DNA of 64,000 nt from Hyphomicrobiales bacterium. Its GTDB lineage: Bacteria; Pseudomonadota; Alphaproteobacteria; Rhizobiales; Im1. Positions 2,242 to 32,283 of the stretch are shown piece by piece. The position numbers were made by a program, and so were the translations under genes. Under the pieces are notes generated by a model. It ran no database searches and was not told the DNA's origin. It saw nothing but the letters and a program-made list of their open reading frames with translations. How positions within the stretch are numbered: position 1 is the first letter of the stretch; every line of letters begins with the position of its first letter. The DNA lies in contig JBAJNN010000003.1 in the NCBI GenBank assembly GCA_036881905.1, forward strand, positions 27,448-91,447, given 5' to 3'.

Positions 2242-3243
2242 ATGATTGCAACGCCCTATCTTCTCTTCCTCGGCAATGCGCCGGACATGCTCGCGGTCAA
2301 GGTCGCCAAGGGCATTCGCGACTGGCGGCCGGAATATGCTCTCGGCCAGTTGCGCCTTGAGGGATGCAAGGCCGATCTCGGCCTGCCCGATCTGACGATC
2401 GCCGAAGCGGCGCGGCGCGGCGTCAAGACGCTGGTGATCGGCGGCGCCAATCGCGGCGGGGTGATTTTACCGGCTTGGAAATCCGTCCTGCGCGAGGCTC
2501 TGGCCGCCGGAATCGACATCGCCTCCGGTCTGCATCATCTGTTGCGCGACGACGCCGATCTGACCGGCCTTGCAAAAAAGCATGGTCGCACCCTCCATGA
2601 TGTGCGGGCGCCCTCCATGTCCTATCCCGTCGCCAACGGCAAAAAACGCCGCGGCAAAAGAATGCTCGCCGTCGGCACCGATTGCTCGGTCGGCAAGATG
2701 TATACCGGGCTTTGCCTGGAAAAGGCCATGCGCGAGAAGGGGCTGAAAGCGCATTTTCGCGCCACCGGTCAGACCGGCATTCTGATTACCGGCTCCGGCG
2801 TGCCGCTCGATGCGGTCATCGCCGATTTCATGGCCGGAGCGGTCGAAACCCTGACCCCCGATAACGACCCCGATCACTGGTACATTATCGAAGGGCAGGG
2901 AAGCTTGTTCCATGCCTCCTTTTCCGGCGTATCGCTGGCGTTGATCCACGGCGGTCAGCCGGATGCGCTGATTCTTTGTCATGTGCCGGACCGTGGGCAT
3001 ATGCGCGGCCTGCCGGATTATCCCCTGCCGAGTCTGGAGGCCTTGAGGGACATTGCGCTTAAGCTTGCCCATATGGTTAATCCGGCCTGCAAGGCGGTCG
3101 GCGTCTCGCTCAATACTTCCGCGCTCGACGAAGACGCCGCGCTGACGTGGTGTCGCGACATCGAGGCGCGGTTGAATCTCCCCACGCTTGATCCCGTCCG
3201 CCACGGGGCGCACAGGCTGGCCGAAGCCCTGGAGGCGTTATGA
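2242..3243 (+). CDS. dgcN: DUF1611-family N-acetyltransferase, DgcN-like (D-glutamate N-acetyltransferase)
   Basis: N-terminus MIATPYLLFLGNAPDMLAVKVAKGIRDWRPEYALGQLRLEGC and ...AVGTDCSVGKMYT... match my memory of DgcN/DUF1611. The stop overlaps the next start (ATGA at 3240-3243). Confidence 0.65.
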   Translation: MIATPYLLFLGNAPDMLAVKVAKGIRDWRPEYALGQLRLEGCKADLGLPDLTIAEAARRGVKTLVIGGANRGGVILPAWKSVLREALAAGIDIASGLHHLLRDDADLTGLAKKHGRTLHDVRAPSMSYPVANGKKRRGKRMLAVGTDCSVGKMYTGLCLEKAMREKGLKAHFRATGQTGILITGSGVPLDAVIADFMAGAVETLTPDNDPDHWYIIEGQGSLFHASFSGVSLALIHGGQPDALILCHVPDRGHMRGLPDYPLPSLEALRDIALKLAHMVNPACKAVGVSLNTSALDEDAALTWCRDIEARLNLPTLDPVRHGAHRLAEALEAL

Positions 3244-4223
3244 GCGGCATGACGATTAAGGCTTTTGAAGAGCGCTTCCCCGTTGCCGGTCGCTTTACCA
3301 TTTCGCGCGAAAGCCGAACCGAAATTCGCGCGGTCACGGTGGAGCTTCACGATGGCGAGGCGAGCGGGCGCGGCGAATGCATCCCCTATGCCCGCTATGG
3401 CGAAACCGTCGAGGGGGTCATCGAGGCCATTCACGACCTTAAAACGGATCTGGCGAACGGGCTTGACCGGGCCCGATTGCAATCGCGCTTGCCGGCGGGG
3501 GCGGCGCGCAATGGCGTCGATTGCGCATTTTGGGACCTTGAGGCCAAACGCGCGGGCAAGCCGGTCTGGTCCCTTGCCGGGTTGCAAAAGCCGCTGCCGG
3601 TAACCACCGCCTACACCATCTCGCTGGCGCCGCCGGAGAAGATGGCGCGTCAGGCGATGAAAAACGCCGCGCGACCGCTCCTCAAGGTCAAGCTCGGCCA
3701 TGAGGGCGATCTGGAGCGCATCGAGGCGGTGAGGGGCGCATGTCGATCGACCATCATCGTCGACGCCAATGAGGACTGGAGCGTCGAGCAGTATCTCGAA
3801 CTGGCGCCGCAATTGCTTAAACTGGGCGTCGCCATGGTCGAGCAGCCTGTGCCCGCCGCCTGCGACGACGTATTGGCCGATATAGAGCGGCCATTGCCGA
3901 TCTCAGCCGATGAAAGCTGTCATGATCGCGCTTCGCTGGCCCAGCTTGGCGGCAAATACGATCTGGTCAATATCAAGCTGGACAAGACTGGCGGGTTGAC
4001 CGAGGCTTTGGCCATGAAGCGCCAAGCCGCGCGGGCCGGTTTCGCGATCATGGTCGGCTCGATGCTTTCGACCTCGCTGGCTATGGCGCCGGCCCTTCTG
4101 GTTGCGCAAAATGCCGATTATGTTGATCTCGACGGCCCGTTGCTTTTAGCCCGCGACCGCGCCGACGGGCTGAACTACCGCGGATCGCTCATCGATCCGC
4201 CATCGCAAAAGCTTTGGGGGTGA
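3240..4223 (+). CDS. dgcA: Enolase-superfamily dipeptide-epimerase-like protein, DgcA-like (N-acetyl-D-Glu racemase)
   Basis: ...VTVELHDGEASGRGECIPYARYGETVEGV..., ...IIVDANEDWS..., ...KLDKTGGLTEAL... are typical MR/MLE-family motifs. It is coupled to dgcN. Confidence 0.6.
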   Translation: MSGMTIKAFEERFPVAGRFTISRESRTEIRAVTVELHDGEASGRGECIPYARYGETVEGVIEAIHDLKTDLANGLDRARLQSRLPAGAARNGVDCAFWDLEAKRAGKPVWSLAGLQKPLPVTTAYTISLAPPEKMARQAMKNAARPLLKVKLGHEGDLERIEAVRGACRSTIIVDANEDWSVEQYLELAPQLLKLGVAMVEQPVPAACDDVLADIERPLPISADESCHDRASLAQLGGKYDLVNIKLDKTGGLTEALAMKRQAARAGFAIMVGSMLSTSLAMAPALLVAQNADYVDLDGPLLLARDRADGLNYRGSLIDPPSQKLWG

Positions 4224-4227
4224 CTGC

Positions 4228-5082
4228 ATGCGCGTCGTTTACGTCAATGGTGATTATTTGCCGGAAAACCAGGCGAAAATCTCGATTTTCGACCGCGGTT
4301 TCCTGTTTGCCGACGCAGTCTATGAGGTGGTGTCGGTTCTTGAGGGTAAACTCGTCGATTTCCCCGGTCATATGGCGCGTCTGCGTCGTTCGTTGCAGGA
4401 ACTCTCCATGAGCTTGCCGCTCAGTGATAAAGATTTGCTCGCCATTCATCGGAAACTGGTGGCATTGAACGCGCTCGATGAAGGGCTGGTCTATCTTCAA
4501 GTCTCGCGCGGCGCAGCCGATCGCGATTTCCTGTTCCTCGAGGAGGGGCTGGAGCCGACAGTGGTGCTGTTCACCCAAGCGAGGAAGATTATCGACGCCG
4601 CGCTCGCCGCGCGGGGTCAGCGTATCATGACCGTTCTCGACCATAGATGGCGACGCTGCGACATCAAAACGGTGCAGCTGCTCTACCCTTCCTTGGCCAA
4701 GACGCTCGCCAATCGGCAGGGCGCCGATGATGTGTGGATGGTGCTGGACGGTTTTGTCACCGAAGGATCGTCGAACAACGCCTTTATCGTGCCTGACAGC
4801 AACAAAATCGTAACCCGCGATCTTTCCAACGAGATTCTCCATGGGGTTACGCGCCGTGCGGTCTTGAAATGCGCGCGCGAGCTTGGCATCAAGGTGGAAG
4901 AGCGCAAATTTACCGTCGAGGACGCCAAGACGGCGAGGGAGGCGTTTTCGACCTCGGCGACCGGCTTCGTCTGCCCGGTCGTACAAATCGACGACGCCAT
5001 GATCGGCGACGGATCTCCCGGCCTGATCGCCTCCCAACTTCGTCAAATTTATATCGATGAAAGCCGCGCCGCGGCGCTGTAA
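4228..5082 (+). CDS. dat: D-amino-acid (class IV, fold-type IV PLP) aminotransferase
   Basis: MRVVYVNGDYLPENQAKISIFDRGFLFADAVYEVVSVLEGKLVDFPGHMARLRRSL... is a classic class-IV aminotransferase N-terminus. It starts 4 nt after dgcA ends. Confidence 0.7.
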   Translation: MRVVYVNGDYLPENQAKISIFDRGFLFADAVYEVVSVLEGKLVDFPGHMARLRRSLQELSMSLPLSDKDLLAIHRKLVALNALDEGLVYLQVSRGAADRDFLFLEEGLEPTVVLFTQARKIIDAALAARGQRIMTVLDHRWRRCDIKTVQLLYPSLAKTLANRQGADDVWMVLDGFVTEGSSNNAFIVPDSNKIVTRDLSNEILHGVTRRAVLKCARELGIKVEERKFTVEDAKTAREAFSTSATGFVCPVVQIDDAMIGDGSPGLIASQLRQIYIDESRAAAL

Positions 5083-5298
5083 GTGACCTGAATGCGTAAT
5101 GGAAAAGTGAAGGGGCGGGTTTTGGCTTTTGGTCGGAATGGATGGTGAGTCCAGTTGAGCGAACAGTACGCCCACATCGCGCGCCATGTTGACGAGGGCG
5201 GGATCGTCGGAGAGCTTGCAATGACGGGAGCGAGGTGATCGCCTATAAGATTGCCATGGGTGAGGGGGACGAGCTTTTGCCGATTGCGACCCTTGCCG

Positions 5299-6585
5299 CT
5301 AGAATTTGTAGCGTTTTTTAACATGGGCGAATTGCCAGAGGTTGAGGGCCATTATCGAAAGCCCGGTCGAAATGGCCGCGCCCAGCAAACCATAAAAGGG
5401 AACCAGGGCAAGATTGCCGAAGAAATTCAGCACGCATGCGGTAAGGACGGACCAAGCGATCAACGCCGCCCCGCCGTTGATGAACATCACATTGGTGCAT
5501 GGGCCGATCATGGCGCTCGACAATTTCCCCAATGCGAGGAAAATGATGATGGAGAGGAAAATGCTCTTCCTCGGGATGGCGACCCACTGCGGCGCGAACG
5601 CGAAAACCAGCAAGAGAATCCCGAGGGCGAACACTGCCCATAGGGTCGATAGCGTTCTGGATAAATTGAACAGGTTTTTTGCATCCGGGCTTCGTTTTTC
5701 CTGGATGGATTTGGCGAAATCCGGAACGAAAATGGCGTTCACCGCCGATTTTCCAATGGCAATAAGCCCGACAATCGCCGTTATGATACCGTATTGGCCG
5801 ATTGCGGCGTCATTGACATAATAGTGCAGGATCAGGACGTCTTCGCTCAACATCAACGTATTCAGACCGGAAATCGCCAGAACCAGCATATGCTCGCGTT
5901 TTAGATTGAATCTGGTTTTTATAGCTGGATTTTCAAATAAATATGTTAATTTATATCCATGGTTTTTAATAAAAAAATTCAAAATTATTAAAATAATTAG
6001 TAAATATAATAATTGTCCATATAAAAAAGATTTGGATGGATAAATATTACCAATATAAAACATGGACACCGTAATGCCGACAGTCAGAACAGGTCGGATA
6101 ATACCCTGCATCAACCGGCTCCATATGACCTTTCGATACCCCTCCAGAGTCGCTAAAAAGAGCGAAGAAAGAATCCCCACAGCGGAAACCGGGCAAGCCA
6201 TTTTCAGGATAAAGGGGACGTCTCTACCGAACAAAGAGAGCGCAATCCATACCAAAACGCAAAAGGCAAGCAAAAGCAGCTGTGTCGAAAAAATGGCAAA
6301 GCCAAGCTGGACAATGTTTTCCGGGTCTTTTGCGATATTCCTGGTCAAGATTGCCGGCCATCCCAATGAAAAAACCATGGTCGGAATGGCGGCATAGGAC
6401 CACAGAATCGTTAATTGCCCCAGAGCGGCATGCGAGATCGACTCCGCAATCGCTATATTTCTGACATTGACCAATATTACGCCGCAGATATTGATCGCTA
6501 TAAGGAGCAATGCAGAGTTTCTAAACGACATATTTTTAGGGGCATTGGGCCGGTATTTCCAATCTCTGAAGGGTAAAACGTTCAT
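5299..6585 (-). CDS. Polytopic membrane protein, MOP/Wzx-type flippase/exporter family (polysaccharide-biosynthesis-protein-like)
   Basis: 428 aa, hydrophobic throughout with roughly 12 or more TM-like segments. It is the last gene of the minus-strand operon and contains an extremely AT-rich stretch (5941-6060). Confidence 0.5.
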   Translation of the reverse strand: MNVLPFRDWKYRPNAPKNMSFRNSALLLIAINICGVILVNVRNIAIAESISHAALGQLTILWSYAAIPTMVFSLGWPAILTRNIAKDPENIVQLGFAIFSTQLLLLAFCVLVWIALSLFGRDVPFILKMACPVSAVGILSSLFLATLEGYRKVIWSRLMQGIIRPVLTVGITVSMFYIGNIYPSKSFLYGQLLYLLIILIILNFFIKNHGYKLTYLFENPAIKTRFNLKREHMLVLAISGLNTLMLSEDVLILHYYVNDAAIGQYGIITAIVGLIAIGKSAVNAIFVPDFAKSIQEKRSPDAKNLFNLSRTLSTLWAVFALGILLLVFAFAPQWVAIPRKSIFLSIIIFLALGKLSSAMIGPCTNVMFINGGAALIAWSVLTACVLNFFGNLALVPFYGLLGAAISTGLSIMALNLWQFAHVKKRYKF

Positions 6586-6597
6586 CGGACCCGGTTC

Positions 6598-7479
6598 TCA
6601 ATCATTATGCTTTGCAGTTTCGCCATCGCCCGTATTATGGAGTATCGCACATGGGGCTTCCCATAAATCAGGGTAGGCCGGCATGGCGCTTTGCCGGCGC
6701 ACCCTTCCATCACTCGAGATGATGACGCCACCCGCCGGCGTATTCATTGCGATGTAGGTCTGCTTCTTGCCGATGAGCCTGCCATAGGCGGCGAAAGGTT
6801 GCGAATTTCGGTCTCCAGCGCCGATCTCAGGCCAACCGAAGGCGAAAAGATAAATCATGTCATCGTGCTCCGACGGCAAAGCGAGCATGTCTTGGGTGCG
6901 ATCGTCGATAATGGCCGGCGTCAGAAAAACGCCGAGTCCGGTTCGGGTGCAATGGAGACAGATATGCTGGCCGATTCGGCCCAGAGCCAGCAATCCGTCG
7001 CAATAGCTGGCCGGAGCATCGCAATCCGCCTTAACGCACAGCCACAAAACTGCTCCGGCTTTTCGCAACGGAAACTGCCCGATGCTGTTGGCGACGACTT
7101 GTTCCCGCTCCAGTTCCCCCTGTCTCTCCAGGGGTCCAGGGCCCGTTCGCGAAATATCATACAGGGTGCCGACATCCCCCTGAAACTTGGCGATCCGCGC
7201 AGAAATGGCGGGCCGGGTGAATTCTGCCGATTTTGCCACGGCCTTTACAAGATTGCCGAACACGTCACGGGACAAAGGTTCATCGCGGAAATTCCGCGTC
7301 GTGCGCCTCTTCATCGATACCGATCTGAGTTCGGCCAGTGGTGGCGTTTTTGCTGACAGTCGCCTGTTGTCCGGCGCATTTTCGTCGGAAATATCGGTGC
7401 CGCAGGCTCGGATATTGAGCCAGGCGAGCAGGCTCATATACCAGTTCGACCGGCACCATTGTTCGATATGCGCTTCCAT
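6598..7479 (-). CDS. Nitroreductase-family / SagB-like oxidoreductase (putative)
   Basis: ...PPLAELRSVSMKRRTTRNFRDEPLSRDVFGNLV... is the nitroreductase N-terminal RRS-x-R-x-F signature. The start is uncertain (TTG 7488, ATG 7479, 7437 or 7314). The N-terminal region overlaps the preceding ORF out of frame. Confidence 0.5.
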   Translation of the reverse strand: MEAHIEQWCRSNWYMSLLAWLNIRACGTDISDENAPDNRRLSAKTPPLAELRSVSMKRRTTRNFRDEPLSRDVFGNLVKAVAKSAEFTRPAISARIAKFQGDVGTLYDISRTGPGPLERQGELEREQVVANSIGQFPLRKAGAVLWLCVKADCDAPASYCDGLLALGRIGQHICLHCTRTGLGVFLTPAIIDDRTQDMLALPSEHDDMIYLFAFGWPEIGAGDRNSQPFAAYGRLIGKKQTYIAMNTPAGGVIISSDGRVRRQSAMPAYPDLWEAPCAILHNTGDGETAKHND

Positions 7480-8275
7480 ATCGCGCAATGTCGGCCAGGG
7501 TGCGGGTGGTTGTTGCTGTTGTCGAGCCGAAAGCCCGATTATGCCGGAACAGGCAATACAGTGCGATCAAGGGATCATCGATTGGCGTTACCTTAGGTTC
7601 GGCGAGGCCCTTGATATGGACCAGCTCGACGATCCGCCCGATGGGGCTTAAGGGACCTGTCTTAATTGTGGTCCGCATCTCATTTACTGACATGGGTTTT
7701 TTGGTCAAGCGGCCATTGTGTTTGCCGCAACGGACCAGAGGCGCGCGCAGGAGCGGCCAAGCCATTTTCGACCAATTCTCGATCGCCGAAGTTTCGTCGG
7801 ATAAGAGACGCCACCCGCTCCTTTGGCAGAGATGCAAAGATACCGTTGTCTTGCCGCTTTCTCTTTCCCCCAATAGCAAAGTTGCACGCCCGGTATCGGG
7901 GTTGAACACGCATCCGCCATGCAAGGCGCTGTAGCGATCGCGCAGCTGAGGCAAGCAATAGGGAAGGAGCACCGGGTCTGGGTGACGCCACTTCGCCCAG
8001 CGCCCGCCCCAGTTGCGGATGTCAACGCCGAGATCCTGGCACCGCCCGGGCGGCTGGCAGCGAAAGAGATAACGAAAGCGGTCCTTTTCAAGGGGCTCTC
8101 TCAGCCGCACGATAAAGTCCGGGGAGCGCTCCTCCGGCGGTCTTCTGTGGATATAGAGGTGATGGTCGATATGGGCCTTGGTCCGACGGCAGGCGCTCTC
8201 AAGCTGTACCCGCAAACCAAGAGTGTCGAAATGGGATATATCCGAATCGACGTTTTTGCCGACAGCCTGCTTCAT
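7280..8275 (-). CDS. HPr-kinase-related (HprK C-terminal-domain-like) P-loop kinase
   Basis: ...GRATLLLGERESGKTTVSLHLCQRSGWRLLSDETSAI... is a P-loop followed by the acidic segment seen in HprK-like kinases. The ATG at 8275 overlaps the upstream stop (ATGA). The C-terminal ~40 aa look non-native (R/K/Q-rich tail). Confidence 0.5.
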   Translation of the reverse strand: MKQAVGKNVDSDISHFDTLGLRVQLESACRRTKAHIDHHLYIHRRPPEERSPDFIVRLREPLEKDRFRYLFRCQPPGRCQDLGVDIRNWGGRWAKWRHPDPVLLPYCLPQLRDRYSALHGGCVFNPDTGRATLLLGERESGKTTVSLHLCQRSGWRLLSDETSAIENWSKMAWPLLRAPLVRCGKHNGRLTKKPMSVNEMRTTIKTGPLSPIGRIVELVHIKGLAEPKVTPIDDPLIALYCLFRHNRAFGSTTATTTRTLADIARYGSAYRTMVPVELVYEPARLAQYPSLRHRYFRRKCAGQQATVSKNATTGRTQIGIDEEAHDAEFPR

Positions 8276-8937
8276 CGGACCATTTCCATCTGACGCCGGG
8301 TTTCTTCAGGATCGCGAAACGAAAATGTCATATTCATTCGCATGCGACTTGGGTGTGAGAGATCGAAATGGGGCCGGTTGGATTTATGGAAGATCGACGG
8401 ATTGAACAGGATCGCCCGGTTGAACCGGTAAGGTATGACCACCGGCGCCTGCCTAGCATGTTCCCCGACATAGGCCCTAGACGCCTCTCCCGATGCCAGA
8501 TACGCGCTGAACGGCATATCAGCGGGCCGCCGCGCATCGTAAAGCACCAACCCGCCGGTCTCACGGTCGAGATTATACCGATCGGGCGTCAACCAATAGG
8601 TGATCGTCAAATCGCCGAAATCGGCATGGACGTTGCCGTCGGTATTTTTCGCATATAAAAGCGCCCAGTACTCCGCCAGACGGTATTGACGGCCGAAATT
8701 TCTCCTTATTGGCGTTTCCAGGGCCTCAACAACCCTCACCGCCATATCCGTTTTCGGCCTTGTATTATGCAAATGCTTTGAGATGGGATTTTTAAGTCTC
8801 CACATCTGGTTGCGAATCAACTCGTCCTGAAGACGAATCGCACCCTGCCGCGTCATGAAATCGTCAATGACGACGTGTGAATCGCCTGATTTCCAGTATT
8901 CACGCGACACCTTGTTCCAATCGATATGCTCAAACAT
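8272..8937 (-). CDS. 2OG-Fe(II) oxygenase (prolyl-4-hydroxylase-like) family protein
   Basis: ...TDGNVHADFGDLTITYWLTPDRYNLDRETGGLVLYD... gives the HxD. ...PYRFNRAILFNPSIFHKSN... gives the distal His. This is the typical facial-triad layout. Confidence 0.55.
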   Translation of the reverse strand: MFEHIDWNKVSREYWKSGDSHVVIDDFMTRQGAIRLQDELIRNQMWRLKNPISKHLHNTRPKTDMAVRVVEALETPIRRNFGRQYRLAEYWALLYAKNTDGNVHADFGDLTITYWLTPDRYNLDRETGGLVLYDARRPADMPFSAYLASGEASRAYVGEHARQAPVVIPYRFNRAILFNPSIFHKSNRPHFDLSHPSRMRMNMTFSFRDPEETRRQMEMVR

Positions 8938-9024
8938 CGAAAGATTGCGGATGATAGCCGGTCACCATAGAGAAGTCACTCTTGCCCACGCTTCTCTCAA
9001 ATCAGCGCTCGGACCGGACCCATC

Positions 9025-9048
9025 GGGCAACGACGGATGCCGTTGCCC
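9025..9048 (-). promoter_or_regulatory. Intercistronic stem-loop (GGGCAACG / CGTTGCCC, 8-nt loop) between the 158-aa ORF and the oxygenase gene
   Basis: A perfect 8-bp inverted repeat was read directly from the sequence. No U-tract follows it on the minus strand, so it is more likely an mRNA-stability or partial-attenuation element than a full terminator. Confidence 0.4.
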
Positions 9049-9055
9049 GAGAACA

Positions 9056-9532
9056 TCACCGAGAAACCGTCTCTACGCGGCTTTCCTTGTTTTTTGCAAA
9101 GTTCGGCGAACCATGGAACGGATCGACAGAACCGGACTCGCCGGATTGCAACATCGCATATTGAACCGGGCTTAAATCCTCAAGAAACTCGTTGCCGGAC
9201 GGGATCACGAAGGAAATGCCGTAGCCGCCATAGTCCGAGGGTTGCTCGATTCGATAGGCCTGAAGCTGATCATAGGTCAAAAAATACGACTTATTCCGCG
9301 CCAGATGCTGAATGATAACAGTTGGCTGGCCGGTCCCCGATGCGTTGAACGGGGGTGTCGCCTCGATCAGCTCATTGTCGGGGATCGAAAAGGTGACGAC
9401 GCCGTGATCGATGTGAACCAACTTTTCCGACGACATCTCATAATTCGCCAATGCCTGCGAATCGATGAGATAGGCGCAACCGACTCGGGGGTCTTGGATC
9501 AAAACACTTGGCAGTTGGTAAAAGCGTTGCAT
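9056..9532 (-). CDS. Hypothetical acidic 158-aa protein with no recognisable family; first gene of the modification-like operon
   Basis: ATG at 9532 (the ORF track starts at TTG 9538). It is preceded by AAGGAGG (9547-9541) with an 8-nt spacer. A consensus promoter lies upstream and a stem-loop lies 8 nt after the stop. Confidence 0.55.
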   Translation of the reverse strand: MQRFYQLPSVLIQDPRVGCAYLIDSQALANYEMSSEKLVHIDHGVVTFSIPDNELIEATPPFNASGTGQPTVIIQHLARNKSYFLTYDQLQAYRIEQPSDYGGYGISFVIPSGNEFLEDLSPVQYAMLQSGESGSVDPFHGSPNFAKNKESRVETVSR

Positions 9533-9584
9533 TTTCAAAGCCTCCTTATGGAAGTTTTTCTGCCTTGAAAAACAGATCTTCCCG

Positions 9585-9626
9585 AAGCTATAGCTTGATT
9601 ATAGCGGCCAGATTCGGTTATGTCAA
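9585..9626 (-). promoter_or_regulatory. Consensus sigma70-type promoter (TTGACA-N17-TATAAT) with a 12-bp perfect palindrome AAGCTATAGCTT over the expected transcription start
   Basis: On the minus strand the -35 TTGACA is at 9626-9621, the spacer is 17 nt, and the -10 TATAAT is at 9603-9598. The palindrome is at 9596-9585. All of this was read directly. Confidence 0.6.
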
Positions 9627-9860
9627 GCGGAAACATTCTTTTGCGCCGAATGCGCCTTATCTGCGGAAATTCTGCCCGTGGGCGCGGCAACCGGATTGAT
9701 TTTGCTCTTAAGCGCTTTCTCGTGATTCCGGCGTTTTGAGATGAGGCGCTTAAGGGGTATCCATGTGGTCTATTAAGAGAATAAATTTCATGATCGACTT
9801 GATCTGCGTGGTAATGTGGTATAAGGAGCGCTTTCGTCGTCTGCGGTGAAGAGACGGATT

Positions 9861-9936
9861 AGGGGTGTAGCTCAGTCGGTAGAGCGGCGGTCTCCAAAAC
9901 CGCAGGTCGGGGGTTCGATCCCCTCCGCCCCTGCCA
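9861..9936 (+). tRNA. trnW: tRNA-Trp (anticodon CCA)
   Basis: The cloverleaf was folded by hand. Acceptor stem: AGGGGTG/CGCCCCT. D arm: GCTC..GAGC. Anticodon loop CTCCAAA with CCA at 9893-9895. T arm: GGGGG-TTCGATC-CCCTC. A 3' CCA is encoded. The position upstream of secE-nusG is the classical one. Confidence 0.92.
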
Positions 9937-10055
9937 GATGGTCAGGGCAGGGTGGGCTGCGGACAGGTTTTCTCGATTGCGTTGCGTATAAAATGATAAG
10001 ATGGCCGGCTTGAGGTTATTCGCGGTGTCATTGGCTACTGGAATTGGCGGGAAAA

Positions 10056-17000: not shown

Positions 17001-18159
17001 CACCCGTCTGGCCGTTTTCCTCAATGGCAAGGAGGCTGCCGGCGGAGGTGGGGTTTTCAAGGACCTTAAGGGCCCGATTACGCCGGATATTCTAAGTGGC
17101 GTGGCGCATTCGTGCTGGTGGGATATTGCGCTTAGCGACGAGAATGCCCTGTCCGAGTTGGAGGCCATGCGCCGGCAATATGAAGATGCGAGGAAACAGC
17201 TGGAGCAACGCTTCCTAGACAAGGTGGAAAAACTGCAGCGTGGCGACGATTTGCTGCCCGGGGTCATGAAAATGATCAAGGTTTTCGTGGCGGTGAACCG
17301 CAAGATACAGCCCGGCGACAAGATGGCCGGCCGTCATGGCAATAAGGGTGTGATCTCCAGAATCGTTCCGATCGAGGACATGCCGTTCCTTGAGGATGGA
17401 ACCCATGTCGATATGGTTCTCAACCCGCTTGGCGTGCCGACCCGTATGAATGTCGGGCAGATTCTTGAAACTCATCTCGGCTGGGCCTGTGCCGGCCTTG
17501 GCCGCCAAATCAGCGAGCTCTTGGACTCCTGTCGCGAGACCAATGACACCACCGCGCTTAAAGCGAAACTTGGTCGTGTTTATGGCGCCGATCGGGTGAT
17601 TGAGACGCTGAGTGACTCCGAACTGGTTCAAACGGCGCGAACGCTCGTCAAGGGTGTGCCGATTGCAACCCCGGTCTTCGATGGGGCCAGAGAAGACGAC
17701 ATTGTCGAGATGCTCGATCAGGCGGGACTTGACGCCTCCGGGCAAGTAACCCTCTATGATGGCCGCACCGGTGAGGTTTTCGACCGAAAGGTGACGGTCG
17801 GTTATATTTACATGCTGAAATTACATCATTTGGTCGATGACAAGATCCATGCCCGCTCCATCGGTCCCTACAGCCTTGTCACTCAGCAGCCGCTGGGCGG
17901 TAAGGCGCAATTCGGCGGCCAGCGTTTCGGCGAGATGGAGGTCTGGGCGCTCGAAGCCTATGGCGCGGCCTATACGCTTCAGGAAGTGCTGACGGTGAAG
18001 TCGGATGACGTTGCCGGCCGCACCAAAGTCTATGAGTCGATCGTGCGTGGAGACGATGCGTTCGAGTCGGGCATACCGGAAAGTTTCAACGTTCTTGTAA
18101 AGGAAATGCGCTCTTTGGGGCTCAACGTCGAACTGGCCGACAGTACTATAAATGCCTGA
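14062..18159 (+). CDS. rpoB: DNA-directed RNA polymerase subunit beta
   Basis: 1365 aa. [39 protein letters not shown]..., ...[25 protein letters not shown]... Confidence 0.97.
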
Positions 18160-18266
18160 CCGGGGCGGAGAGGCCGTTAAAACCCCTTAGCTCAAAGCGC
18201 GAACCGTATCAAGGGGTCGAATCGGGAGCGTGCTCGGGATGAACTGGTGATAAGGAAGCGGAAATC

Positions 18267-21200
18267 ATGAACCAGGAGATTATAAATATCTTCGGCTCTG
18301 GCGAGCAGATGCAGAATTTTGACTCGATCAAGATCAGTGTGGCCTCTCCGGAGAAGATTCTGTCGTGGTCCTACGGCGAGATCAAGAAACCCGAAACCAT
18401 CAATTATCGCACCTTCAAGCCGGAGCGTGACGGGCTGTTTTGCGCGCGCATCTTCGGTCCGATCAAGGATTATGAGTGCCTGTGCGGCAAATACAAGCGG
18501 ATGAAGTATAAGGGGATTATTTGCGAGAAGTGCGGGGTTGAGGTCACCTTGTCGCGGGTGCGCCGCGAGCGCATGGGACATATCGAGTTGGCTGCTCCCG
18601 TCGCCCATATCTGGTTTTTGAAATCGTTGCCGAGCCGTATCGGCCTTTTGCTCGATATGACGCTGAAAGAAATCGAGCGGGTTCTCTATTTCGAGAGCTA
18701 TATCGTGCTTGAACCCGGCTTGACGCCCCTCAAATCCCGCCAATTGCTCACGGAGGAAGAGTTTGTCTCCTTGCAGGAAGAGTATGGCGAGGACACATTC
18801 AGGGCCTCGATCGGCGCCGAAGCCGTGCGCGAATTGCTGGCGGGCATCGAGCTTGAGCGATTGCGCGATGATTTGCGTCGTGACATTGTCGCGACCAATT
18901 CCGAACTCAAGCAGAAGAAACTCACCAAAAGACTCAATATTGTGGAAGCCTTTATCGCCTCGCATAATCGTCCCGAATGGATGATTCTGACCGTCCTGCC
19001 GGTTATTCCCCCCGAATTGCGCCCTCTGGTGCCATTGGATGGTGGACGGTTCGCGACCTCCGATCTCAACGACCTTTACCGCCGGGTCATCAACCGCAAT
19101 AATCGTTTGAAGCGATTGATCGAGCTTAAGGCGCCGGATATTATCGTGCGCAATGAGAAGCGGATGTTGCAGGAATCCGTCGATGCCCTGTTCGACAATG
19201 GCCGGCGCGGGCGCACGATTACCGGTGCCGGCAAGCGGCCTTTGAAGTCGCTGTCCGATATGCTGAAGGGTAAGCAGGGCCGGTTCAGGCAGAATCTGCT
19301 CGGCAAGCGCGTCGATTATTCGGGGCGTTCGGTTATTGTCGTGGGTCCGGAATTGAAGCTGCATCAATGCGGCCTACCGAAGAAAATGGCGCTCGAATTG
19401 TTCAAACCCTTCATCTACTCCAGGCTTGACGCCAAGGGGCTTTCTCACACGGTCAAACAGTCGAAAAAGCTGGTTGAGAAGGAAAAGCCGGAGGTCTGGG
19501 ACATTCTCGATGAGGTGATCCGCGAGCATCCGGTTATGCTGAATCGGGCGCCGACCTTGCATCGCTTAGGGATACAGGCTTTCGAGCCGGTTTTGATCGA
19601 GGGCAAGGCCATTCAGTTACACCCCTTAGTTTGCGCTTCCTTCAACGCCGATTTCGATGGCGATCAGATGGCCGTTCACGTTCCCCTGTCGCTTGAGGCC
19701 CAGCTTGAAGCACGCGTCTTGATGATGTCCACCAACAACATCCTGCACCCCGCCAATGGTACGCCGATCATCGTGCCATCGCATGATATTGTCCTTGGCC
19801 TTTATTATCTGTCGCATACACGCCAAAATGAACCGGGCGAGGGCATGGTCTTCGCCAATATGGATGAAATCGAACATGCGCTGAATGTCGGCGCGGTGAC
19901 GCTGCATTCCAAAATCAAGGCGCGTTACACCGGTGTCGATTCACAGGGCAACACGGTCACCAGACTTTATGAAACCTCTCCGGGGCGCATGAAGGTCGCC
20001 GATCTTCTGCCGCACCGGCCGGGAATCGGTTTCGATCTGGCCAATCGCCTGCTCGCCAAGCGCCAGATTACCGAAATGATCGATGTCGTTTACCGCCATT
20101 GCGGCCAAAAGGAGACGGTTATCTTCTGCGACCGGATTATGGCTCTTGGTTTCAGCTACGCTTTCAAGGCCGGCATTTCCTTCGGCAAGGACGACATGGT
20201 GATCCCCGAAACCAAGGAGGGGCTGGTTGACGAAGCCCGCCAGCTCGTCAAGGAGTATGAGCGGCAATATGTCGATGGTCTGATCACCCGGGGGGAAAAA
20301 TACAACAAGGTGATTGATGCTTGGGCCAGATGCACCGACAAGGTCGCCGATGAGATGATGGAGAGAATTTCGGCACGGGAAACCGAGTCCGACGGGCGGC
20401 GCGAAAAGCCGGTCAATTCGATTTATATGATGTCTCACTCCGGCGCGCGCGGCTCGCCGGCGCAAATGAAACAGCTCTCGGGCATGCGCGGCCTGATGGC
20501 GAGGCCCGACGGTTCGATCATCGAAACGCCGATTACCTCCAATTTCAAGGAGGGGCTGTCGGTTTTGGAGTATTTCAACTCGACTCATGGCGCTCGTAAG
20601 GGGTTGGCCGATACCGCGTTGAAAACAGCGAATTCGGGTTATCTGACCCGTCGTCTGGTCGATGTCGCACAGGATTGTATCGTGACCGAGTTTGACTGCG
20701 GCACCAAGGCCGGTATCAAATGCGTGCCGTTGGTCGATTCCGGCAAGGTGGTCGTGCCCTTGGCGCGGCGCGCTCTCGGCCGGACCGCGGCTGAAGACGT
20801 CATCGATCCGGTGACGGGCGATGTTATCGTGAAGGCCCATGATGAGATTCTCGAAGAGCATATCGGGCGGATTACGGCCTCGGGCATTCAGGAATTGCGC
20901 ATTCGCTCGGTGTTGACCTGCGAGACTGGATTCGGGGTCTGCGCCAAATGCTACGGGCGCGATCTCGCCCGCGGTACGCCGGTCAATCTCGGCGAGGCCG
21001 TCGGGGTCATTGCGGCGCAGTCGATTGGCGAGCCCGGCACCCAGCTGACCATGCGCACCTTCCATATCGGCGGCACCGCTCAGGTTCTTGACCAATCTTT
21101 CGTGGAAGCCTCTCAGGACGGTGTCGTTGCATTGCGCAACAAGGCCGTGGTGCGCGATTCTTCCGGCAGGCTCGTCGTCATGGGCCGCAACATGGTGCTG

Positions 21201-29971: not shown

Positions 29972-32283
29972 CGCCGGACGGGCCCTCGATTCTGACGATT
30001 TTCATGAAGACGCTGGGCTTCGACCACCGACAGGGCGGTCATGTTGATCACGCCGCGCACGGTGACCGATGGCGTCAGAATATGGGCCGGCCGCGCCGGA
30101 CCGAGCAGGATCGGTCCGATGGGCAGGGCGTCCGCCATGCTTTTGATAAGCTGGTAGGAAATGTTGGCGGCATCGAGCGTCGGCATAATCAGCATATTGG
30201 CCCGGCCCCTGAGAATGGAATGAGGGAAGATTCGTGTTCTGAGCGTTTCGTCGATGGCGGCGTCGCCATGCATTTCCCCCTCGACTTCAAGGTCTGGCGC
30301 GGTTTTTCGCAGAATGTCCAGGACGTCACGCATTTTGATCGCGGTTTCGGTATCGGCGCTGCCGAAACTCGAATGCGACAGTAGGGCAATCTTCGGTTCC
30401 ATGCCGAAAGCGCGAACCTGCTCGGTGGCAAGCCGGGTCATCTTTGCGAGTTCTTCGGCGCCGGGGTTGGGCTGGACGTAGGTGTCGGCGAGGAAATAGA
30501 CTCCACTCGCCACGATGATCAAGCTGAGAGCGGCGAAATTATCGGCATTGGGGGCGAGCCCGATGACGTCGCGAATATCGCTAAGATGGCGGTCAAAACG
30601 GCCCTCGAGCCCGCAGATCATGGCGTCCGCCTCGCCGCGATGAACGGCCAGCGCGGCAATGACGGTGGTGTTGGTGCGCACGATGGTGCGGGCCAGATCG
30701 GGCGTGACGCCGCGCCGATCGGTTTGCTCAAGGTAGCTTTCGACATACTGGCGATAGCGCGGATCGTCGTTGGGATCGATAATCTCAAAATCCCGCCCTG
30801 GCCGGATCGACAGGCCGTAGCGCTTAAGGCGCGTATCGATCACATTGGGCCTGGCGATCAGGATCGGCTCGGCGATTTTTTCCTCGATCAAGGTCTGGGC
30901 CGCGCGCAAAATGCGTTCATCTTCTCCTTCGGCGTAAATCACCCGTTTCGGTTCGAGCCTCGCCCTGGTAAAGACCGGCTTCATGATCAAACCGGAACGA
31001 AACACAAAGCGGACGAGGCCTTCGTTATAGGCGGTAAAGTCCTCGATCGGGCGGCGCGCCACGCCGGATTCCATGGCGGCCCTGGCGACGGCGGGGGCAA
31101 TTCTCAAGATCAGTCGGGGATCGAACGGCGTCGGGATCAGATAATCGGGTCCGAACAGGCGCACCTCGCCGCCATAAGCCTGTTCGGCAATCTCGGAGGA
31201 GGCTTCATGCGCAAGTTCGGCGATAGCGTTGACAGTCGCCAGTTTCATCTCTTCATTGATCGCGGTTGCGCCGGTATCGAGCGCGCCGCGAAAGATATAG
31301 GGAAAACATAAGACATTATTGACCTGATTGGGATAATCGGAGCGGCCGGTGCAGATCATCGCTTCGGGATTCGCCGCGCGCGCCTCCTCGGGCATGATTT
31401 CCGGCGCCGGATTGGCCAGCGCCATGATCAGCGGGCGCGGCGCCATGCGTTTCACCATCTCGGGGTTCAAGACATTGCCGGCCGAGAGCCCTAGGAAAAT
31501 ATCCGCCCCATCGATAATCTCGCCGAGGCCGCGCTTGTCGGTGTCCTGGGCATAGGCCGCCATCCAGCGATTCATGGTCTCGTCGCGGCCCTTATAAACC
31601 ACACCGTCAATATCGCTGACCCAGATATTGCCTCGGCTGACGCCAAGCGAAACCAGAAGATTGAGGCAGGCGATCGCCGCCGCCCCCGCCCCCGATGTCA
31701 CGACCTTGATGTTGCCGAGGGATTTTTTGGTCAGGATCATGGCGTTGGTCACCGCGGCGGCGACAATGATCGCGGTGCCATGCTGGTCGTCATGAAAAAC
31801 GGGAATATCCATCTTCTCACTCAGCCTGGCCTCGACATCGAAACATTCCGGCGCCTTGATGTCTTCGAGATTGATCCCGCCGAAGGTCGGTTCCAGCGCC
31901 GCCACCACATCGCACAGATGATCGACATTGCGCGAGGAGACTTCTATGTCGAACACATCGATACCGGCGAATTTCTTGAACAGAACCGCCTTGCCCTCCA
32001 TCACCGGCTTTGCGGCGAGCGGGCCAATAGTGCCGAGGCCCAGAACCGCCGTGCCGTCGGAGATGACGGCGACCAGATTGCCGCGCGCCGTCAATTCGGC
32101 GACTTGATCGGGGCGCTCCACGATCTCTTCGCATGCGGCCGCCACGCCCGGGGAATAGGCGAGAGCCAAATCATGCTGGTTGCTCAAAGGCTTGGTCGGA
32201 ACAACCTCGATTTTCCCCGGCCTGGTGTTGCGGTGATAGCCGAGCGCCTGAAGTTTCGTATCCTTCGACATGCTTGATACCAT
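29968..32283 (-). CDS. maeB: NADP-dependent malic enzyme (malic enzyme domain plus C-terminal phosphotransacetylase-like domain)
   Basis: 771 aa. ...[39 protein letters not shown]... plus a PTA-like C-terminal half. Confidence 0.9.

Follow-up and report, generated by a model that had tools for sequence, protein, structure and literature searches.

What does a compact run of five bacterial genes make when its first product resembles no known protein and the others look like tailoring enzymes and an exporter? This question is raised by a 64,000-nucleotide stretch of a Hyphomicrobiales metagenome-assembled genome (MAG; assembly GCA_036881905.1, contig JBAJNN010000003.1, positions 27,448 to 91,447), hereafter the window, in which five minus-strand genes, here called g1 to g5, run from 9532 to 5299. 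A first-pass annotation had described their products as an orphan protein, a 2-oxoglutarate (2OG)-Fe(II) oxygenase, an HPr-kinase-like protein, a nitroreductase-like protein and a Wzx/MOP-type exporter, and had concluded that the combination matched no known class. The coordinates, the tight spacing and the motifs that it quoted all proved correct. Its conclusion did not hold: the relatives of this cluster carry a fusion of the enzymes TfxB and TfxC, and the C-terminus of g1 carries the motif of a tiarin precursor. In our view the copy in the window is probably a degenerate one, belonging to a mobile cluster that represents a variant of the tiarin pathway not described before, with g1 as its unusually large precursor.

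Tiarins, defined in late 2025, are trifolitoxin-like members of the ribosomally synthesised, post-translationally modified peptides (RiPPs), with tfxABCDEFG and tfxH of Rhizobium as the type system, and inhibit aminoacyl-tRNA synthetases in the manner of a Trojan horse (Travin et al., bioRxiv 10.64898/2025.12.02.691738). According to the same preprint, what defines their clusters is the pairing of two FMN dehydrogenases, TfxB and TfxC, each with a peptide-recognition domain, and the precursor is short, with a conserved Gln that becomes part of the fluorophore. The target synthetase can be read from the precursor, as it is set by the residue preceding that Gln; the acetyltransferase TfxH, of the GNAT family, is often present and protects the producer, an efflux pump is also found, and trifolitoxin is trimmed by housekeeping peptidases (10.64898/2025.12.02.691738). 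Our reference loci were the Rhizobium tfx cluster and two other tiarin clusters. In a Pseudomonas chlororaphis tiarin cluster (L018, 6861-9461 and 10001-10162) the precursor, with ...CLQHGD, adjoins a leucyl-tRNA synthetase (LeuRS) gene, and in a Bacillus cluster (L019, 8186-9856 and 10001-10150) the precursor, with ...LRQQ, adjoins an arginyl-tRNA synthetase gene, of which a second copy lies 8 kb off (17801-19471). In both cases the synthetase matches the residue before the Gln, so the published target rule was reproduced independently.

The genes of the window form one conserved unit, as the first-pass annotation had supposed. When co-localisation was checked in other genomes, the same gene set was found in at least 11 independent loci from four phyla, so its arrangement in the window is not a matter of chance. 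Three species or strains of Pseudomonas contributed loci, as did Fischerella sp. PCC 9605, Kroppenstedtia guangzhouensis and a number of metagenomes, and the open reading frames (ORFs) of these loci were classified with hidden Markov models (HMMs) built from orthologues; the search with the close g1 alignment, A1, yielded only two loci from genomes and five from metagenomes. Intact clusters lie, for instance, at about 1,376,900-1,382,850 of CP146205.1 in Pseudomonas sp. 4810-S13 and on ALVT01000034.1 in Fischerella sp. PCC 9605. In each locus of sufficient length (L001, L002/3, L004/5, L006, L007, L008/9, L013, L014, L016, L020 and L021), g1, a full-length double flavoenzyme and g3 occur together, and g2 is present in all but two of them; the contigs of L011 and L012 were too short for gene context. 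The closest relative of the window cluster is L008, whose g1 is 75% identical. Many of the related loci adjoin integrases, resolvases or insertion sequence elements, and the cluster is a rare, horizontally mobile biosynthetic unit.

The large enzyme of the cluster is only partly preserved in the window. The reading of g4 as a nitroreductase-like protein stands for what is left of the gene (6598-7488, minus strand; 296 aa from a TTG, with an ATG at 7479), which scores 34.4 bits against the Pfam nitroreductase model PF00881 (threshold 23.5) and contains the motif RRTTRNF; it missed that this is a remnant of a TfxB-TfxC fusion of 644-704 aa, found at full length in all 11 other loci. NCBI annotates the window g4 as a 238-aa protein, and a homologue search started from it returned only itself. 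When the family of full-length enzymes was compared by hhalign with three TfxB orthologues, columns 66-293 aligned with TfxB columns 73-329 at 99.8% and E=3e-29, an alignment that covers the motif YHxxV..YPF..Y...KD..M.EY preceding the SagB domain, as well as PSGGARHP and ERxMWRYRE.R..R....D.GH. The second half of the enzyme, columns 380-649, aligned with columns 23-353 of three TfxC orthologues (98.5%, E=3e-15). The HMM of the fusion family gave TfxB orthologues 69-100 bits, as against 22 for CyaGox (a cyanobactin oxidase with a SagB-type dehydrogenase domain) and 11 for McbC. By BLASTP the window g4 itself reaches 30 bits against TfxC, of whose counterpart it keeps the C-terminal ~220 residues. 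These profile alignments identify the large enzyme of the related loci as a colinear fusion of the two FMN dehydrogenases TfxB and TfxC. Its best match of solved structure was PDB 3eo7 (72.7 bits), an uncharacterised 511-aa 'putative nitroreductase' that may serve as a structural template for TfxB-type enzymes.

The first gene, g1 (9056-9532, minus strand; 158 aa from an ATG, or 160 aa from a TTG at 9538), had been called unassignable to any known family and the likely substrate of its neighbours, and on both points our results agree. The protein matched nothing in Pfam, NCBIfam or PADLOC, its predicted fold had no PDB match by Foldseek (best E=0.4, for a model with a pLDDT of 65), and it had no tblastn match on plasmids. 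The exact sequence carries the annotation 'hypothetical' in a Hyphomicrobiales MAG. The family is rare, with 19 close proteins among 5.8 billion, and 80 clusters among 1.8 billion representatives in a profile search. One hit of that kind, P0063 (2208 aa, ten matching stretches, E=1e-17), was rejected as a homologue: it is a fish immunoglobulin-like repeat protein with ~9 bits per stretch, and its E-value is the sum of ten weak matches, an example of how repeats can inflate whole-sequence E-values. The AF2 (AlphaFold2) model of g1, built with 19 homologues and moderately confident, predicts two tandem beta-beta-alpha-beta repeats of ~55 aa each at residues ~9-110 and disorder beyond residue 114, where the conserved motif is followed by a variable tail. 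Within that disordered motif lies Gln129; when 59 diverse g1 homologues were aligned, no other column was invariant. This residue, together with the position of g1 as the first gene, makes it the best candidate substrate.

Residues 113-132 of g1, GNEFLEDLSPVQYAMLQSGE, encoded at 9137..9196 on the minus strand, form a tiarin-like junction between leader and core, in which Leu128 stands directly before Gln129 (codon 9146-9148). The consensus of the g1 family at this place, G.ELIEELPxLMRxLLQ[ST][GN][ET], aligns position for position with tiarin precursors, for example FMIEELPPLPLALEQGD and FKIEEISEMPMALRQQS, and the residue preceding the conserved Gln is Leu in most family members and sometimes Val or Ile. 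The homologues, 123-202 aa long including the folded domain, in many cases end 2-6 residues past the conserved Gln, and the variable tail was rejected as a conserved core because so many of them lack it. The likeness was measured with a scoring matrix built solely from 56 non-identical published tiarin precursors, for which the leave-one-out median of true sites was 10.3 bits and the maximum among 1397 background Gln sites in the window was 8.6. This matrix picked the conserved Gln in most members of the g1 family, and ~18 of them scored 8.7-19 bits, exceeding all background sites.

A second g1-like paralogue of 167 aa was seen in L020 (14223-14726). It matches positions 12-115 of the HMM, that is, the N-terminal repeat domain only, and is without the Gln motif at the C-terminus; its gene, further downstream in the cluster, adjoins a methyltransferase, an enzyme also encoded in L021.

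The window copy of the cluster has been damaged. Comparison with L008 by tblastn, the g4 HMM and the junction sequence itself place a deletion junction at 7457..7500 (minus strand), where homology to g3 stops and homology to g4 restarts. In the coordinates of L008, the g3 homology stops near residue 312 and the g4 homology restarts at residue 431 of 702; in those of the window, g3 resembles its orthologues up to about its residue 265-275, the last ~60 codons being non-native, and g4 matches its family HMM only at 429-650 and aligns to residues 425-694 of orthologues 645-702 aa long. About 1.3 kb is thus missing, comprising the 3' part of g3 and the opening ~430 codons of g4, and as a result g3 reads out of frame through the g4 remnant for ~60 codons, to 7280. 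The ~200-nt overlap of g3 and g4 at 7280-7479, which had been taken for tight gene packing, is a deletion scar, and the acetyltransferase of the relatives is missing as well. Of g4 there remains only the nitroreductase domain at the C-terminal end of the TfxC-like half; the second recognition domain is largely lost, and the TfxB-like half is absent, with no second copy anywhere in the 64 kb. This short architecture was seen in no other locus. The window copy most likely cannot make the product, and the locus is probably a non-functional, decayed island adjoining a tRNA-Trp gene.

Between g1 and the damaged flavoenzyme lie two genes with no homologues in the three tiarin clusters examined. The first, g2 (8272-8937, minus strand, 221 aa), reached the threshold of no Pfam model and had no match in NCBIfam or PADLOC, and a PDB profile search gave a chance match of 30 residues only; more widely, none of the five window proteins matched a defence system in the library scans, PADLOC included. 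Its AF2 model (pLDDT 90.6, pTM 0.88) had 356 Foldseek matches in the PDB at E<=1e-3, the top ones all being 2OG oxygenases (HygX, ColD, proline hydroxylase, PHD2 and EctD). The protein carries the motif HAD...FHKS, and H104, D106, H184 and R200 are invariant in alignments of 14 and of 9 homologues. The predicted structure confirms the initial call of a 2OG/Fe(II)-dependent oxygenase, and g2 is a predicted tailoring enzyme specific to the sub-family of clusters with g1.

For g3 (7280-8275, minus strand, 331 aa) the label HPr-kinase-like needs to be narrowed. The top NCBIfam match is TIGR04352 (HprK-related kinase A, E=7.6e-7), and the same model comes first for nine of nine orthologues, but the family scores 25-35 bits against a cut-off of 200 and covers only model positions ~87-162, the P-loop region. 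The P-loop motif LLLGERESGKTT is present, and G136, G141-K142-x-T144 and D160-E161-T162, that is, the Walker A and an acidic motif, are invariant in eight orthologues. A PDB profile search gave generic matches at the level of P-loop proteins, with HPr kinase (1ko7) at E=0.014. We conclude that g3 is a distant HPr-kinase-like P-loop protein that lies outside the HPr kinase family proper.

In loci with the gene order of Fischerella, we also noticed a conserved ORF of 60-85 aa between the fusion enzyme and g3 (L002 13555-13782; L020 11803-12060; L021 6612-6812; L007 ~5350-5566; L016 ~5960-6146), with the motif GW...//..V.D....//..SL.ELL. It had no NCBIfam match or family assignment, does not occur in loci of the window type and does not carry the C-terminal Gln motif. 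In other RiPPs, Ser is phosphorylated by HprK-like kinases that work with a recognition domain on a separate chain (PMC13381572), and by analogy this ORF may be a separate peptide-recognition partner of the kinase-like protein.

The last gene, g5 (5299-6585, minus strand, 428 aa), encodes a multi-pass membrane protein 51% identical to its L008 orthologue. The window protein itself has no Pfam match; among its orthologues, that of L001 scores 32.1 bits against PF01943 (Polysacc_synt; cut-off 28.2) and that of L013 scores 20.8. By its orthologues g5 appears to belong with the MOP/Polysacc_synt-type exporters, as the first-pass annotation had it, and the part of that claim that probably fails is the function of a Wzx flippase: the exporter is interchangeable between lineages, being of the MOP/Polysacc_synt type in proteobacteria, of the MFS type in Kroppenstedtia and a divergent ABC-2 type in Fischerella. 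An acetyltransferase of the GNAT family, weakly similar to TfxH, lies in or beside the cluster in L001, L004-L009, L013, L014 and L016, in L008 between g4 and g5. Neither the GNAT profile nor LeuRS had a match anywhere in the 64-kb window.

The strong expression signals and the stem-loop that had been reported for g1 were also found. A sigma-70 promoter of perfect consensus, TTGACA-17 nt-TATAAT (9598..9626, minus strand), drives g1 and is the sole match with 12/12 positions within 5000-10000; a Shine-Dalgarno sequence AAGGAGG, read from the sequence, lies at 9541..9547 (minus strand), 8 nt 5' of the g1 ATG; and a GC-rich hairpin of 12 bp without a U-tract (9023..9050, minus strand) lies directly 3' of the g1 stop codon. 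Hairpins directly 3' of g1 occur in L001, L004, L006, L008 and L013 too, their sequences unrelated to one another, and the feature recurs in loci that share the gene order of the window. The hairpin probably attenuates read-through or stabilises the transcript, thereby setting the ratio of precursor to enzymes, and this role appears to be conserved, since the hairpin recurs with a different sequence each time. Further down, g2 and g3 overlap by the 4 nt ATGA, and the gap between g4 and g5 is 12 nt (6586-6597).

Taken against the tiarins, the clusters with g1 share several features of layout and sequence. In the relatives of the window cluster the TfxB-like and the TfxC-like modules follow the tiarin order; the g1 family has an acidic and aliphatic segment followed by A-[LM]-x-Q with the invariant Gln; a GNAT comparable to TfxH and an efflux pump are present; and 2OG oxygenases are frequent accessory genes in tiarin clusters. 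They differ in that TfxB and TfxC are fused in one chain of 644-704 aa, and in that g1, of ~155 aa with folded tandem repeats, takes the place of a short precursor of 23-65 aa encoded immediately 5' of tfxB. In the order seen in the window, g2 and g3 stand between g1 and the dehydrogenase, and the core genes include those for an HprK-like P-loop protein and for a dedicated 2OG oxygenase. The clusters with g1 have neither a YcaO nor an aminoacyl-tRNA synthetase gene, and in the window copy the TfxB-like half and the GNAT are missing too. The 79 tiarin clusters listed in the preprint include none from these host organisms (10.64898/2025.12.02.691738).

The other classes with which the genes invite comparison resemble the cluster less completely. 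The fusion enzyme belongs to the same flavoenzyme superfamily as the azoline dehydrogenases of the SagB/McbC type found in TOMMs (linear azol(in)e peptides), but it is much closer to TfxB than to McbC or the cyanobactin oxidase, the g1 cores are not rich in Cys, Ser or Thr, and the loci have no YcaO cyclodehydratase. Indeed the absence of YcaO and of a lasso cyclase, remarked on in the first-pass annotation, extends from the window cluster to all related loci: Pfam tables showed no YcaO, and no lasso Asn-synthetase-like macrolactam synthase or B2 leader peptidase was found in any of them. Precursors of the NHLP and Nif11 types (proteusins, prochlorosins) have long leaders derived from folded proteins, and g1 resembles them in its long, conserved, protein-like N-terminus followed by a short, putatively modified C-terminal core; it has no sequence relationship to them, and its clusters lack the ABC transporter for cleavage at Gly-Gly and export. 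The HprK-like RiPP kinases, as in lasso peptides of the paeninodin type and in the LPP family (PMC13381572), are matched by the P-loop kinase core of g3, with TIGR04352 as its best model, and by the small ORF directly upstream of g3 in Fischerella-type loci, at the place of a separate recognition-domain partner. They differ in that the clusters with g1 have no lasso cyclase, leader peptidase or nucleotidyltransferase.

From these comparisons a working mechanism can be drawn for an intact cluster, which would comprise six or seven genes: g1, g2, g3, the double flavoenzyme of 644-704 aa, a GNAT and an exporter. The precursor g1 would be made in excess through its consensus promoter and the hairpin after its stop codon, with the folded tandem-repeat domain of ~110 aa in place of a short leader, and the enzymes would act on its disordered C-terminal segment, ELIEELPxxxxA[LM]LQ[ST]. 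The TfxB-TfxC fusion would build a heterocyclic chromophore or warhead from the invariant Gln and the residues around it, as happens in trifolitoxin, while g2 and g3 would add the tailoring specific to this lineage, probably hydroxylation and the phosphorylation of Ser or Thr near the Gln. The product would then be exported, and the GNAT would shield the producer by acetylating the processed toxin. With Leu before the Gln, the published tiarin rule predicts an inhibitor of LeuRS; we infer both this target and the chemistry by analogy with the known tiarins.

The genes could instead yield a whole modified protein: folded g1 would leave the cell intact, bearing at its C-terminus a chromophore or cofactor derived from the Gln along with hydroxyl and phosphate groups; this is essentially the model of the first-pass annotation, and we think it unlikely. 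Its strength lies in the N-terminal domain of g1, which is conserved far beyond a usual leader and is predicted to fold, and in the Tat-like (twin-arginine) signal peptides found at the N-terminus of at least six g1 homologues (P0022, P0036, P0046, P0047, P0057 and P0066; for example RRHFLGAVVGSVAGVAVAA), two of which sit in complete clusters, fusion enzyme and kinase-like gene included (L020 9001-9561 and L021 3363-3950). The Tat route exports folded proteins, and these signals hint that some members of the family leave the cell as folded, modified proteins. The GNAT and the swappable efflux pumps (MOP, MFS, ABC-2) are by contrast typical of small toxic products, and the variable tail and the frequent end 2-6 residues past the Gln resemble tiarin cores. 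It also counts for the export of an intact protein that no locus encodes a leader protease, yet this says little, as trifolitoxin is trimmed by housekeeping peptidases (10.64898/2025.12.02.691738). A further alternative makes g1 an accessory protein (a chaperone, scaffold or immunity factor) and places the true precursor in a small unannotated ORF or elsewhere in the genome. Although g1 greatly exceeds known tiarin precursors in size, L004/L005 have a called ORF of 39 aa upstream of g1, and the conserved ORF of 60-85 aa lies between the flavoenzyme and g3 in Fischerella-type loci, no conserved small candidate came out of an all-frame scan of ten g1 loci with the tiarin matrix. The 60-85 aa ORF, as noted, has no C-terminal Gln motif and does not occur in window-type loci, whereas g1 stands first in the operon with the strongest expression signals and a hairpin and has an invariant Gln in its disordered tail, and we give an accessory role only a slim chance.

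The window copy might also work in a reduced form, with the lone nitroreductase domain, the oxygenase and the kinase modifying g1 in the absence of the TfxB-like half and of the GNAT. It is true that no internal stop interrupts the ORFs of g1, g2, g5 or the g4 remnant, all of them intact, that the promoter is perfect and that the remnant lies above the Pfam nitroreductase threshold. The architecture is nevertheless found in no other locus, all 11 others (11/11) keeping the full enzyme of 644-704 aa; at the point where its homology begins, the remnant lacks a start codon served by a ribosome-binding site, and it has lost most of the recognition domain of the TfxC type; and g3 has lost its native C-terminus to ~60 codons out of frame. 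A functional short form therefore seems to us quite improbable. Least credible, and disfavoured to the point of being very nearly dismissed, is a locus for the modification of cell-surface polysaccharide or lipid with g5 as a Wzx-type flippase. It would account for the match of g5 orthologues to Pfam Polysacc_synt and for the low GC content over g5, as in many O-antigen loci, but no locus contains glycosyltransferase or sugar-nucleotide genes, and the exporter is exchanged for an MFS (Kroppenstedtia) or ABC-2 (Fischerella) protein with g1-g4 unchanged.

Several results weigh against the reading of the cluster as a variant tiarin pathway with a decayed copy in the window. The window g1, which belongs to the derived subgroup with GNEFLEDLSPVQYAMLQSGE, scores -4.2 bits on the tiarin matrix (top 2% of the background), so the link to tiarins rests on the g1 family as a whole; the members of that family are not independent of one another, yet it is on their wider consensus that the link depends. 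At ~155 aa with a well-conserved folded domain, g1 is also far from the 23-65 aa of the described tiarin precursors, and the Tat-like signals on some homologues fit an exported modified protein better than a small peptide. TfxB, TfxC and the fusion match the same generic SagB models at similar scores (TIGR03605 gives 50-78 bits on the full-length fusion relatives); dehydrogenases of the SagB family are found in several RiPP classes, and the fusion is placed by profile comparison. The HMMs of g2 and g3 matched nothing in three fetched tiarin clusters, and hhalign found no detectable similarity between g5 and TfxD, which are thus analogous and not orthologous. No leader protease is encoded in any locus and no aminoacyl-tRNA synthetase gene lies near any g1 locus. 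The product is predicted here from the genes, its chemistry being drawn from homology to a family described in one 2025 preprint, and the apparent deletion could be an assembly error in the MAG.

The surroundings of the window cluster have the pattern of an inserted island, given the low GC over g5 (45-50%, as against 58-60% in the flanks) and the adjoining tRNA-Trp gene (9861..9936, plus strand), which serves as the landmark of the insertion. Beyond this tRNA gene lie secE, nusG, rplK, rplA, rplJ and rpoB. On the other flank, just outside the island, three neighbouring genes (2242-5082, plus strand) encode a P-loop protein with DUF1611, a dipeptide epimerase of the MR_MLE type and an aminotransferase of class IV (D-amino-acid); they resemble a small module for recycling D-amino acids or dipeptides. 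A 332-aa ORF at 4189-5187 (minus strand), antisense to the aminotransferase gene (4228-5082, plus strand; Pfam Aminotran_4, E=6e-44), has an Arg-rich translation of low-complexity appearance and is almost certainly no gene. Far from the island, ARAGORN called a tRNA-Ala(GGC) at 30328-30418 (plus strand), with the anticodon at position 28; its 91 nt are unusually long for a bacterial tRNA-Ala, and the call may represent an insertion-bearing tRNA or be false.

Returning to the variant tiarin pathway, the intact relatives may define a new RiPP sub-class, with a folded leader of ~110 aa that has no known relatives, a Leu-Gln-Ser/Thr site and a TfxB-TfxC fusion, whose product would be a hydroxylated and/or phosphorylated warhead that inhibits LeuRS or, where family members carry Tat signals, perhaps a chromophore borne on a protein and exported with it intact; we advance this tentatively, at a little less than an even chance. 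If the reading of the cluster is true, the tiarin family grows to include TfxB-TfxC fusions, for which a search aimed at separate neighbouring genes, as published, may not have been designed, and gains a protein-sized precursor with a new folded domain and two new core tailoring enzymes. It also yields a concrete, testable prediction, a Leu-Gln warhead aimed at LeuRS, and intact clusters exist in cultured strains of Pseudomonas, Fischerella PCC 9605 and Kroppenstedtia.

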